A stretch of DNA of 64,000 nucleotides. It comes from Escherichia coli. Lineage in GTDB: Bacteria > Pseudomonadota > Gammaproteobacteria > Enterobacterales > Enterobacteriaceae. Within the stretch, counting starts at the first letter, position 1, and each line of letters starts with the position of its first letter. Made by a program: the position numbers. This document shows, in pieces, positions 15,001-18,000 of this stretch. The stretch is from the NCBI RefSeq assembly GCF_030013595.1, contig NZ_CP122768.1. The stretch is one strand, 5' to 3'.

Positions 15001-18000
15001 ACGTGATCGATACGCACCGGGTATTTGTCTTTAGCCCTGCACAGGTGAAAATAACCCTCCCCTTCCGTGATCCGCCTCCAGATATCTCCCAGTTGCCTGG
15101 ATATCCGATAAGATTTGTTGTGACGTTGCCCATCCAGGTAGCCGATAAAATGAATATGAAGTCCCTTGTTTGACGTATATTCCATTACCCAGTAATATCC
15201 CGCCAGCATCGTTTGGGTTTCACTAAGTAAGCGGTGCATTTCAATACACATACTGTGCCTACAGGAATGACCAAAACTGGGCGTGTCTTTCCTGTAGGCA
15301 AAATCAATTCTGAAAGGTAACAGTTTAGAAAAACGTTGAAACAGACCTTCCATGTGTTCATTCACATCTTTCAGAATCATGAAGTCCATTTCGTAATTGG
15401 GATTAGCATTATACATTTTATAGTCCTTACTTTATAAAAGTTACAGGAAGGTGGAATTACATAAATACTGAGAGTACAGAAACGCCGTACCGCGGCATTA
15501 ATAAACGAGGTAACCAGCAGCACAGACAACCTGATAAAACTGTTTCGTATTACCTCATTACTCCAAAGAGGTAATATTTCAGAGTACAGTAAGACTCACT
15601 TAAACTGAGGACCAGTACGAATTACAATGGTAAAAACACACCTCATAGAATTGAGTTTAAGGAAGTACCATTCAATCACTTACAGGAAGTAATCTGACAT
15701 TCACAAAAGCCAGTATCGGGTAGCCACAGGCAACACCGCTATTAATACTTCTGTACCATTAAGTAAAAACAGCGACCCAGCTTGAGGCCTCTACAGATAT
15801 TTAACTTCACCATAAAAATGATGGTATACAGACCATACCCCACACACCATAAGAATATTATTTCATACAGGAAAGATTATATTTTTTCATACCTATAAAC
15901 TGTAACAGAGCCATAACATACTCTAATAGTGTTCCGGTACGTAACCAGTGTTAAGTGCGTACAAGACAACATAACAGATCACATAACTTCCACTAATAAT
16001 ACTAATTAACCTAAATTATTTATTGAACACGAAAACAATGAAGGCCCCACCTCACCTCAGACTAAAGCCGACAATATCCTGAGTAACACTCTATCCAATA
16101 GTAAATAGTGGTTACACCAGTTATATTTACTGACTGACCTGTACCAGAGTTTTCTAATACAACGCTGACATGGTAAAGACATTAGTCTCCTCCGCAAGTA
16201 GCAGAGGAGACTATATGTACTCAACGATTAAGTCGTTCAGAGGTCAAAGTTAGGTGCGACACACAACGTTTTTCCCTCAATAACCGGTACAACTCTGTTT
16301 TGTTCATACAGTAAATCCAGTAACCAGTTGATTTTATCCTTTTTCCGGAAACGGTTCGGACCACGCTGTAAAATGTCATTTTTTTTCATACAGAGGATCC
16401 CCTTCTCAATACAATAGCTTTTTATCCAGTTGAAAAGTTCAAGCTCCTCTGGAATGAGTCGCACAGGTACGGTCAGGGCAGAGTTGTCAAAAGTTAACGG
16501 ATTAGACAACCGCACATACTCATTACCGTACCATATTGCTAATTCTCTCGCCATTTCTGCAGTGTAAGGGGAAATCTCCCCCTCTTCACCGCTCGAATGG
16601 TAAATAAGTCCTGCCAGTCTTGCCATATACTCTGCATTTTTAGCAGCATATTCCCGGCAATGTCTTAAAGGCCCCAATCCCCCCAGCTTCGATTCCACAT
16701 CATTGTAATAATCCGTCCAGATTCTGGCAGCCTGAGGAGAAAAGTGAAGGCAACGTCGTTCACCACTCATCGCCAGACTTTCATCAATAAGCTCATTGAT
16801 CCTCTCTTCAAACAAATCCTGATACTGTGATGAATAATTATCTCCGGTTATTATCCTTGTCCCCTGCGTTGATGTTGGTTGACACATCAAAAACCTTGCA
16901 TGATGTCCTGACGTTTTCACAATTTCTTTTTTTCGCGTACAAAAACCTTTGTGGTAAACATCAGGCTGAATCATCACCGATATCGTCAGTCTTGGCTCCT
17001 TCAAATTAATTCCGGGAGATGATTTCCTGTCGATGAAAAGAGAACCTCCATCCCACAAAGTGTTAATAATTCCCAGTTTACTCATGGCCCGGCTGTCAAA
17101 AATTACCCCCCTTCACTGGATACAAGAGCAAAAGAGCGATTGCTATCGGAGTAATATTTTAACATTCCCTCTATCGTTGTCTCATTAAAAATTGTTCGAC
17201 GTATCTGCGGCGGAACAGGAGGTTTATTCAGATGCGTTTCAAGCTCTGATTCTGTTGCCTTGTAATCTTTACCGGCACGAATCTCTTTATGAAATTTTGA
17301 TTCCAGCGCTTTTTGTTTTTGCTCCCATATTTCCTTTTCTGTACTGTAATTCTCAACCAGTTTCGCGTATTCATCCGCCAGGGCTTCATCCCTGAGATAA
17401 AATGCTTTCATAAACACTTTATCCACGGTCGTTTTCCTTTCACCGGAATCAGCCAGAATCAGAGAGTAAAGATTAACAGGCCCATGTAAATTTCCAGGTC
17501 TGCACACGTCAATCTGATTCTGACAGGCAATTGAGATCGCTGTTAATGCGGATGTTGCCACCATAGCCAAAGGTGCCTGTGTATTTTTTTGAGTTTCAAT
17601 TATTGCATTTCTCACCAGCGGTGGTAGTGCATATATCGGATAAGGATTTTCTGGTGCAAGTAAGCACATAAAAGCCTCTCTTTTCATTAATGGGTTAGTA
17701 AAATAGCAGCAAATCCCGCTACAATAGCGAAAATAGCTGCTATTCAGACCTGATGCTCTGAGAAATACAGAGCATTTGTAGATCTGATGTTTAATAAACC
17801 GATAAGGTTAATTCAGTGAAGACTGTATTATTCACCACGAAATATCATTCATATTTCTCATTCTTAATACCTCCGGAAATTATTTCACTAATACCTTTCC
17901 CCCGGTCTTTTCCCTTTCTCGAGAACCATAGTGTAAATATTAACGGCCCCACGTAAATTTCCGGGACTGCATACGTCAACCTGATTCTGACAGGCAATTG

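Follow-up and report, generated by a model that had tools for sequence, protein, structure and literature searches.

The yfjI-family gene of an integrative island in the 64-kb stretch of Escherichia coli DNA analysed here (the window) is broken by the absence of one G from a run of guanines. This is probably a recent loss-of-function mutation at a mutational hotspot, a slipped-strand null, and not a regulatory device. The window copy is split at a G6 run and does not form a single uninterrupted ORF, and it is therefore a pseudogene of the DUF3987/YfjI family. The same G6 allele is labelled by NCBI 'YfjI family protein, frameshifted' in ETEC1746, ETEC1747, ETEC4085, HB37 and PEC1011.

The proposed course of events is that one G was lost from a G7 run by slipped-strand mispairing at replication, inside the helicase gene of the island, so that the frame now ends at a TAA directly after the run. 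The same -1 change, and less often a +1 change, arises repeatedly in E. coli at this G7 hotspot. Its level of about 1% of alleles is what would be expected if new mutations were offset by loss, weak selection or occasional reversion.

The split gene and its island

The features of the locus are collected in Table 1. On the minus strand the N-terminal ORF ends with GAA GGG GGG TAA, the G run coding for Gly187-Gly188 and supplying base 1 of the Val189 codon, and the C-terminal ORF begins 17 nt past this stop in the -1 frame. The start used by NCBI in relatives corresponds to the ATG at 17669 (MCLLAP...), a further in-frame ATG lying upstream at 17687. Both ORFs pass the gathering cutoff of 27 for Pfam DUF3987 (PF13148), with 134.6 bits for the N-ORF and 132.9 bits for the C-ORF. 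They cover profile positions 1-154 and 168-363 of 364, respectively, and are thus adjacent parts of one domain, which agrees with the preliminary description of one DUF3987 gene lying in two ORFs. When the window was aligned to the intact allele of O157:H7 PV15-279, the sole difference in 101 nt was one missing G (G6 vs G7). Moreover, the 477/483-aa protein obtained by inserting one G in silico differs at no residue from that of the PV15-279 allele and is 100% identical to WP_000335695.1, so the G6 frameshift is the only lesion in the gene. The frame change, said earlier to coincide with the C6 run of the plus strand, is by these two results tied directly to the homopolymer and is not a chance coincidence. 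In the large protein collection described below, the exact 188-aa N-terminal fragment was found on 165 contigs and the exact 282-aa C-terminal fragment on 81.

Table 1. Features of the yfjI locus and its neighbourhood (window positions)
Feature	Position	Strand	Evidence
yfjI-family (DUF3987) helicase gene, inactivated by -1 frameshift	16237..17687	-	ORFs and translation; Pfam DUF3987 in both halves; RefSeq relatives 'YfjI family protein', frameshifted or intact
N-terminal fragment, 188 aa from ATG 17669 (194 aa from ATG 17687)	17103..17669 (ORF to 17687)	-	Walker A and Walker B glutamate; invariant residues in 28-sequence alignment
C-terminal fragment ORF, 282 aa from ATG 17085	16237..17085	-	Pfam; 28-sequence alignment; AF2 model
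G6 homopolymer (C6 on +), G7 in intact allele; 1-base deletion site	17106..17111	-	Sequence and alignment to intact allele
Premature TAA stop directly after shortened run (GGG GGG TAA)	17103..17105	-	Translation
Second homopolymer of yfjI, A7 coding (T7 on +), intact in window	16927..16933	-	
Terminator-like hairpin, 13 pairs, just past yfjI stop codon	16183..16213	-	
Second DUF3987 gene, 65-aa N-terminal relic and duplicated upstream region	17888..18085	-	ORF; Pfam; present in all relatives, outside lesion
alpA-family regulator gene, upstream of yfjI	18312..18620	-	Profile match; RefSeq relatives
yfjJ-like 'inovirus-type Gp2' gene, intact, downstream of yfjI	14853..15416	-	ORF; profile match; RefSeq relatives
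Island tyrosine integrase, intact, adjoining island/clpA junction	21724..22926	-	Comparison with relatives

The PHROG match of YfjI is 'DNA helicase' (E=2e-62), and its homologues occur fused to Toprim, PriCT or PrimPol domains. The AF2 model of the repaired protein (pLDDT 88.1) had as best Foldseek matches MCM subunits (E = 1e-4), ComM, HslU and RuvB, all with low TM scores of 0.3-0.38. YfjI is a predicted AAA+ (MCM-like) helicase. A search of its sequence against PDB chains gave no match, and neither NCBIfam nor PADLOC has a model that covers YfjI, its YfjJ-like neighbour protein or the 605-aa neighbour. One DUF3987 protein has been described as a Walker A/B-dependent 5'-3' helicase and partner of an element's primase-polymerase (PMC11724360). 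YfjI may serve island replication after excision.

The Walker A motif SGERKT (K79; 17430-17447, minus strand) and the Walker B glutamate E186 (SSE; 17112-17114, minus strand) both lie on the N-terminal fragment, and R78, K79 and E186 are invariant across an alignment of 28 homologues (20-41% identity). The C-terminal fragment holds the invariant Q235, G255, A258, R259, G270, R272, E326, K344 and R351 of the same alignment, and in the AF2 model a winged-helix-like part at its C-terminus. The reading frame is cut only two codons past the Walker B glutamate. The cut severs the AAA+ ATPase core, leaving Walker A and B on a 188-aa piece and the other invariants, including R259 and R272, on a 282-aa piece that could be made at best by re-initiation. 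As the core is divided over two fragments, the split G6 protein is most likely inactive and the gene a null allele. A functional split into two genes was also considered and ruled out, since 28/28 aligned homologues and ~99% of close relatives have the gene as one ORF, and the cut goes through the AAA+ core, parting Walker B from the arginine-bearing half.

The host element is an OI-43/48- or SpLE1-type integrative island carrying ureD, an eptA-like gene, traT and a TOTE primase-helicase, with the int gene adjoining clpA. No tRNA gene, from which the attachment site and the full extent of the island could be defined, was found in the 64-kb window. Compared with complete E. coli genomes, the host core of the window has an identity of only 96-98.7%.

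Tract length among relatives

In complete E. coli genomes that share the flanking sequence, the tract was G7 in 950 (749+201), G6 in 8 (5+3), G8 in 2 and G9 in 1, that is 11 out-of-frame alleles against 950 G7, or ~99% in frame. A similar proportion came from a collection of 15 billion proteins, counted in blocks, where 202 blocks list the G6 fragment, compared with 20,804 for the intact protein (about 1%). There is a deletion bias, with 165 contigs for the G6 fragment as against 29 for the G8 fragment. In addition, G6 alleles are scattered among G7 alleles on at least four near-identical backgrounds, so that the change recurs; in the cleanest G6/G7 pairs 0-3 SNPs were counted over about 8.1 kb, the tract being the only indel. 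The suggestion that the tract is a slipped-strand hotspot is therefore well supported: lengths from G6 to G9 occur among relatives and the change has been made repeatedly on otherwise identical G7 backgrounds, so that the hotspot is real and the mutation is reversible in principle.

Runs of seven G in wild-type E. coli slip at about 1e-8 to 1e-7 per generation in mutation-accumulation work, and the rate per generation at this tract would be the ordinary low one expected of a G:C run of 7 nt where mismatch repair is proficient. Indel rates in E. coli climb exponentially with homopolymer length (PMC8510543). Recurrence in about 1% of related strains is more in line with an ordinary mutational hotspot than with an on/off switch built for the purpose.

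The preliminary description had expected simple decay to leave a uniform tract length together with other disabling mutations. The first part does not hold, since G6, G7, G8 and G9 are all found among relatives. The second does: in the Sanger-finished ED1a genome an A7-to-A6 slip, at the site corresponding to the second homopolymer in Table 1, knocks out the ED1a-type yfjI, and an IS421 insertion, an IS1 insertion and a nonsense codon are further knockouts in the gene family. These other lesions make up a pattern that points to simple decay.

Artefact, switch and leaky expression

A sequencing or assembly artefact, with a true genome of G7 and an under-called homopolymer, is unlikely for the window, even though it would account for some related records. 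In EcN_Sk compared with Nissle 1917 over 40 kb, all indels are deletions and 5/6 sites are 7-8 nt homopolymers, the yfjI tract included, which makes an artefact likely in EcN_Sk. Moreover, ETEC1747 and HB37 (G6) each have a frameshifted neighbouring gene too, and L017, L018 and L021 are full of indels. Part of the G6 calls in complete genomes thus look like long-read homopolymer artefacts, and long-read errors are the probable source of G6 in some of the frameshifted RefSeq records. The window does not share these traits. The signature of long-read under-calling, several shortened homopolymers of at least 7 nt, is present in EcN_Sk but absent from the 35-kb core and the 10.8-kb island of the window: runs of at least 7 nt in the core equal the reference wherever the reference has the same run, about 25 core genes are intact, and the G6 tract is the single indel of the island relative to six relatives. 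G6 is also real elsewhere, as short-read assemblies contain it too, among them a Logan assembly in which no indel other than the tract occurs (L022, L023, L015). Furthermore, contigs of at least 0.2 Mb make up an equal share of the G6 blocks (13/202) and of the intact ones (1462/20804), so G6 is not a class of long-read artefact. The tract is nevertheless a trap for long-read base-calling, and single G6 calls in complete genomes require confirmation at read level.

EcN_Sk and Nissle 1917 had also been considered as a same-strain test of instability; this was rejected because the two loci are 331 SNPs apart and an artefact is likely.

The gene had been proposed to be a reversible on/off switch. 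Such a contingency locus, where a selected hypermutable G run toggles the island helicase ON (G7) and OFF (G6 or G8), for instance between a replication-competent and a locked island, seems very improbable. Several traits would suit it: the run lies inside the ORF with G7 in frame and G6, G8 and G9 out of frame, close relatives range from G6 to G9, G6 arises repeatedly from G7, and GGG GGG G spends rare Gly codons although GGA GGA would do. The OFF alleles also lack secondary decay, which is expected for young nulls and equally for a switch that is often reset. The loci of NCTC86 (G8) and B-2207 (G9) are near-identical and differ in tract length; however, as evidence of switching this pair is weak, because B-2207 differs from NCTC86 by other single-base indels and its G9 may be an error.

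The distribution of lengths speaks against a switch, since about 99% of alleles are ON, no broad range of lengths is seen and the ON and OFF lengths are not both common in close relatives. A 7-nt run is also short for phase variation in a mismatch-repair-proficient species. Moreover the tract is not kept across alleles, reading GGAGGGG in ED1a, GGGGGAG in 2011C_4247, GGAGGAA in A33 and CAVP819 and GCTGGGA in K-12. These alleles encode the same or similar residues, and sister alleles interrupt the run with synonymous changes; the interrupted-tract alleles were read in three sampled records. An 81-nt query that placed the ED1a-type GGAGGGG tract in the flanks of the window had no exact match, the ED1a-type allele having a further SNP in the flank. 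The A7 run and IS insertions knock out the same gene just as often, and the gene encodes a helicase of replication type, neither a target for fluctuating selection nor a protein with a surface or restriction function. The proposed switch is accordingly not upheld.

The poly-G contingency loci of Neisseria, Haemophilus and Campylobacter resemble yfjI in having a G:C homopolymer within the ORF where a change of +/-1 toggles the frame. Their tracts typically measure at least 8 nt and belong to species in which mismatch repair controls repeats weakly or not at all. The yfjI tract by comparison is 7 nt long, 99% ON, not conserved and placed in a helicase gene, whereas contingency loci have broad ON/OFF length distributions and surface or restriction-modification functions, and switch at high frequency, phase-variable loci being defined by reversible switching at 100-10,000 times the basal rate, with variants to be found even in small populations (PMC11868660).

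A slower form of contingency is, if anything, marginally less credible. Here G7 <-> G6/G8 changes would toggle the replicative helicase of the island, and leaky -1 decoding at G GGG UAA would keep a trace of helicase when OFF. An OI-43/48-type island would then alternate between replicating after excision and a locked, domesticated form, and near-identical G6 islands at different tRNA sites in divergent hosts would mean that OFF islands still move.

Least probable of all is that the G6 allele is merely attenuated, some full-length YfjI being made through -1 ribosomal or transcriptional slippage. Two routes can be drawn: tRNA-Gly slips -1 on G GGG with UAA in the A site, giving ...SEGGVIFD..., or transcriptional slippage adds a G. 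The geometry fits, as the -1 frame is open from 17112 and a P-site slip on the GGG beside the stop would restore the wild-type sequence. A precedent is also available in the 'savior indel' of herpes simplex thymidine kinase, likewise a G7 run gaining or losing one G in a nominally null gene, where +/-1 indels are partly offset by low-level frameshifting (PMC5009743). In that gene, unlike yfjI, both the frameshifting and a selective benefit (drug resistance) have been demonstrated. G runs are the poorest -1 shifters in E. coli: G_GG.G_GG.U without a stimulator gave 0.018%, Z_ZZ.N tetramers lacking a stimulator lay on average near background, and the above-background signal of G_GG.G was ascribed to internal initiation (PMC4066793). 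The two-ORF layout is not conserved either, about 99% of close relatives and all aligned distant homologues being single ORFs, so nothing points to a programmed event.

Programmed frameshifting or slippage was examined as a candidate in its own right and ruled out. The zero-frame context GA A GGG GGG UAA contains no in-frame X_XXZ_ZZN heptamer and no A/T run of 8-9 nt or more, there is no downstream stimulatory RNA structure (MFE -18.8 kcal/mol vs a shuffle mean of -21.3, z = +0.77), and G runs in E. coli shift at about background (PMC4066793).

Related alleles and significance

With a null allele at a hotspot as the preferred reading, the locus should be annotated as a frameshifted yfjI pseudogene, neither as two genes nor as a phase-variable gene. 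It also illustrates, in natural E. coli, how a G:C run of 7 nt can be a recurrent hotspot of -1 changes, with a share of about 1% of alleles. Should the island depend on its DUF3987 helicase to replicate once excised, copy-number amplification or transfer of G6 islands would suffer, and this would bear on the spread of EHEC/ETEC urease and tellurite-type islands.

A better studied protein sharing DUF3987 with YfjI is AgaPH, a PriCT-DUF3987 helicase from a mobile element with a pAgo. This element bears an integrase, and the AgaPH gene lies on it close to an AEP primase-polymerase (PMC11724360). Unlike AgaPH, YfjI has no PriCT domain.

The closest known counterparts of the window allele are the frameshifted yfjI pseudogenes of ETEC1746, ETEC1747, PEC1011 and HB37, in which the G6 allele is identical and lies at the same position of the same gene. 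The first three also share the alpA-yfjI-yfjJ island type of the window, with 99.5-99.96% DNA identity. The frameshifted RefSeq relatives differ from the window in their chromosomal sites (serX region, thrW) and in their hosts. The ED1a-type yfjI belongs to the same family and has also suffered a -1 slip in a 7-nt homopolymer, at a similar frequency (231 blocks), giving fragments of 250 aa and 216 aa. The run that was hit in this allele lies 59 codons downstream of the G run, which itself has an interruption (GGAGGGG), and inheritance of the lesion appears to be clonal.

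The interrupted gene and its product

The yfjI-family (DUF3987) gene is divided into two open reading frames, which the preliminary description had taken for contiguous parts of one protein, with the change of frame at a run of six C. The first ends in ...AGT GAA GGG GGG TAA and matches Pfam DUF3987 profile positions 1-154 (E = 6e-39), and the second, which lies in the -1 frame and begins 17 nt past this stop, matches positions 168-363 of 364 (E = 2e-38). As these matches adjoin in the profile, the two frames are neighbouring pieces of one domain. The closest relatives, from 5,426 complete E. 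coli genomes, carry the annotation "YfjI family protein"; two records are identical base for base to the 1601-nt query and most others have 1602 nt across the same span. When the window was aligned with ETEC1746 and O157:H7 PV15-279 the single difference in 101 nt was the coding-strand G run, with seven residues in the O157 strain (G7) and six in the window (G6). The gene of PV15-279 is an intact 477-aa ORF, and adding one G to the run of the window gives a protein with no amino-acid differences from it. Both earlier proposals were borne out, the lesion lying in the G run itself. The G6 allele is already labelled "frameshifted" in RefSeq relatives. The lesion appears to be a real and recent deletion of one base, which would have been lost by strand slippage at a recurrent hotspot and would inactivate a helicase gene of a mobile island.

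Features of the window in and around the island
Feature	Position	Strand	Remark
5' ureB sRNA match	1179-1457		inside urease cluster, left end of window
TOTE primase-helicase	12338-14722	-	intact; AEP primase domain and SF2 helicase
yfjJ-like "inovirus-type Gp2" gene	14853-15416	-	next after yfjI in module
yfjI-family gene	16237-17687	-	split by frameshift
C-terminal ORF	17085-16237	-	ATG at 17085
A7 coding run	16927-16933
N-terminal ORF	17687-17103	-
C6 run	17106-17111	+
yfjI 5' end	17455-17744		repeated in relic region
Imperfect inverted repeat	17702-17744		20 nt
DUF3987 relic	17888-18085	-	65 aa; second DUF3987 gene; island module
Relic with own upstream region	17888-18210	-
alpA	18312-18620	-	island module
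Degenerate IS1		-	listed between integrase and alpA; island module
605-aa ORF	19720-21537	+	between IS1 relic and integrase
8-nt A/T run	near 21339		in 605-aa ORF
Integrase	21724-22926	-	island module
Rfam RtT-like element	23144-23278		island/clpA junction
CRISPR-DR4 repeat	23381-23408		single
C8 run	23467-23474
Pentapeptide-repeat ORF	44769-46571	-	600 aa
IS10-type transposase	within 59932-61202
RNA-OUT antisense RNA	61133-61202

The intact protein matches PHROG 2373 "DNA helicase" (E = 2e-62), and Toprim, PriCT or PrimPol domains are often fused to its distant homologues. In an alignment of 28 sequences (20-41% identity) R78 and K79 of the Walker A motif (SGERKT) and E186 of the Walker B motif (S-[SD]-E-G-G) are invariant, as are Q235, G255, A258, R259, G270, R272, E326, K344 and R351. 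The FALVS strand (residues 180-184) lies just ahead of E186 in an AlphaFold model (pLDDT 88.1), whose top structural matches are the AAA+ motors MCM subunits, ComM, HslU and RuvB, with low TM scores. An oligomeric 5'-3' helicase has been demonstrated in another element with an integrase: it is a PriCT-DUF3987 protein that requires Walker A and B and binds the primase-polymerase of that element, and the same study placed DUF3987 in superfamily 6 (PMC11724360). The yfjI frame is lost at Gly187-Gly188, two codons past the catalytic glutamate, so that the fragment with Walker A and B is separated from the one with the other invariant residues; we infer that the G6 allele is a null allele.

Tract length among relatives

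The complete genomes were surveyed with exact queries of 80-82 nt that had the run in the middle. With the flanks of the window, G7 was found 749 times, G6 five times (HB37, ETEC1746, ETEC1747, ETEC4085 and PEC1011), G8 twice (NCTC86 and SCU-104) and G9 once (B-2207); a common flank variant (CGT for CGC), queried for G6 and G7, gave 3 and 201 matches respectively. The tract is therefore not uniform, although G7 is dominant, and the out-of-frame share is about 1.1% of run-bearing alleles. A collection of 15 billion proteins again gave about 1% G6: the exact intact 477-aa protein occurs in 20,804 blocks, the exact 188-aa G6 product in 202 index blocks (165 contigs), the 282-aa C-fragment in 81 contigs and the 191-aa G8 product in 29 contigs, -1 outnumbering +1 by a factor of about six.

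In a neighbour-joining tree of the 6.3 kb common to 30 loci, G6 alleles stand beside G7 alleles in at least four groups, and the SNP table of the closest group has only two informative SNPs, each with G6 and G7 on both sides. The cleanest pairs of G6 and G7 loci have no indel but the tract over about 8.1 kb, with 0 SNPs between related loci L015 and L025, 1 between L023 (a short-read Logan assembly) and L025, 1 between L022 and L029, and 3 between the window and L026. HB37, too, has G6, its gene being 96% identical and located at another tRNA site. It follows that the -1 change has recurred and that the run is a genuine slippage hotspot, as had been suspected from the homopolymer.

It is improbable that the G6 of the window is an assembly error, although some G6 calls in relatives are doubtful. 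EcN_Sk, compared with Nissle 1917 over 40 kb, has six internal indel sites, all of them deletions and five in 7-8-nt homopolymers, the yfjI tract included; ETEC1747 and HB37, both G6, have a neighbouring gene frameshifted too, and the related loci L017, L018 and L021 are full of indels. The near-identical loci of NCTC86 (G8) and B-2207 (G9), and of EcN_Sk (G6) and Nissle 1917 (G7), also differ by other single-base indels, those of EcN_Sk mostly in long homopolymers, which suggests base-calling error rather than biological instability. However, the G6 allele is real: it is present in short-read assemblies, and contigs of at least 0.2 Mb make up an equal share of G6 (13/202) and intact (1462/20804) records. 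In the window itself, about 25 core genes are intact, runs of at least 7 in the 35-kb core all agree with the reference at every site where it has the same run, and comparison of 10.8 kb of island with six close relatives gave no indel other than the tract; no long-read artefact signature was found in these 35 kb and 10.8 kb.

Recoding, switching and decay

If tRNA-Gly slipped by -1 on G GGG while UAA occupied the A site, the wild-type sequence would be restored, and a compensated indel has a precedent in the G7 run of herpesvirus thymidine kinase (PMC5009743). However, such motifs shift poorly in E. coli, with 0.018% frameshifting for G_GG.G_GG.U and an average of about background for tetramers without a stimulator (PMC4066793), and the RNA downstream of the run is no more stably folded than its shuffled versions (z = +0.77). 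Leakage, if any, is probably far under 1%.

The preliminary description had also proposed a reversible on/off switch rather than a fixed pseudogene. The lesion is reversible in principle and tract lengths do vary among relatives, with out-of-frame alleles free of secondary decay, but this is equally expected for young nulls at a hotspot, kept rare by weak selection or drift. In-frame alleles make up about 99% of the population, the run is only 7 nt long and the species is capable of mismatch repair, and the product is a replication helicase. Nor is the run conserved, reading GGAGGGG in ED1a-type alleles, GGGGGAG in 2011C_4247, GGAGGAA in A33 and CAVP819, and GCTGGGA at the same codons of K-12 yfjI. 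Other disabling mutations of the gene were found in relatives: a second homopolymer, 59 codons downstream, has slipped from A7 to A6 in the ED1a genome (finished by Sanger sequencing) and in 231 index blocks, which truncates the protein at 250 aa and is about as common as the G6 lesion, while SCU-104 has IS421 on top of G8, strain 266917_2 has IS1 and 2011C_4247 has a nonsense codon. In repair-proficient cells the mutation rate of a G:C run of 7 nt is near 1e-8 to 1e-7 per generation, elevated but far below the rates typical of phase variation. Indel rates in E. coli climb exponentially with run length (PMC8510543), and phase variation is by definition reversible switching at high frequency, its repeats mutating at 100-10,000 times the basal rate (PMC11868660). 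That the run is a slow contingency site in control of island replication is very doubtful, and nothing indicates a dedicated, evolved switch.

The island and its host

The yfjI gene belongs to an integrative island whose other named genes are all intact, with IS66, traT, an eptA-like gene and ureD farther left. The observed gene order is that of O157 OI-43/48 or SpLE1-type islands. Core genes extend from 23.6 kb to about 58 kb, and clpA adjoins the island. The island DNA (12300-23150) has 99.9% identity with ETEC and O157 islands, whereas the core flank (23000-64000, clpA to potF) reaches 96-98.7% at best among the 5,426 complete genomes, which points to a host of a divergent Escherichia lineage that took up a widely circulating island. 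Near-identical G6 islands occur at serW (window and ETEC1747) and in the serX region (ETEC1746 and ETEC4085). ARAGORN found no tRNA in the whole window, and the tRNA end of the island therefore lies outside it.

The DUF3987 relic, which is N-terminal, keeps its own upstream region, and this stretch shares direct repeats of 201 nt (77%) and 74 nt (74%) with the yfjI 5' end. An inverted repeat stands directly before the yfjI start, on the yfjI copy. Every relative examined has the relic, which is therefore an old partial duplication or a recombination scar; its region possibly holds a regulator or an origin-like site. In place of the TOTE protein many related islands have a 1652-aa NERD/AAA protein or a truncated copy, which suggests a variable defence slot at this position, adjoining the yfjI-yfjJ module.

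The 605-aa ORF is conserved in all related islands and had no match in Pfam, PHROGs, NCBIfam or PADLOC. Several long-read assemblies (ETEC1747, EcN_Sk and the related locus L033) have a shorter version of its A/T run, which is another annotation trap. The CRISPR-DR4 repeat at the junction is presumably the known residual array near clpA. The pentapeptide-repeat ORF is intact in the window, whereas the closest complete genome, S1-SRL-01-C, has it annotated as a truncated pseudogene.
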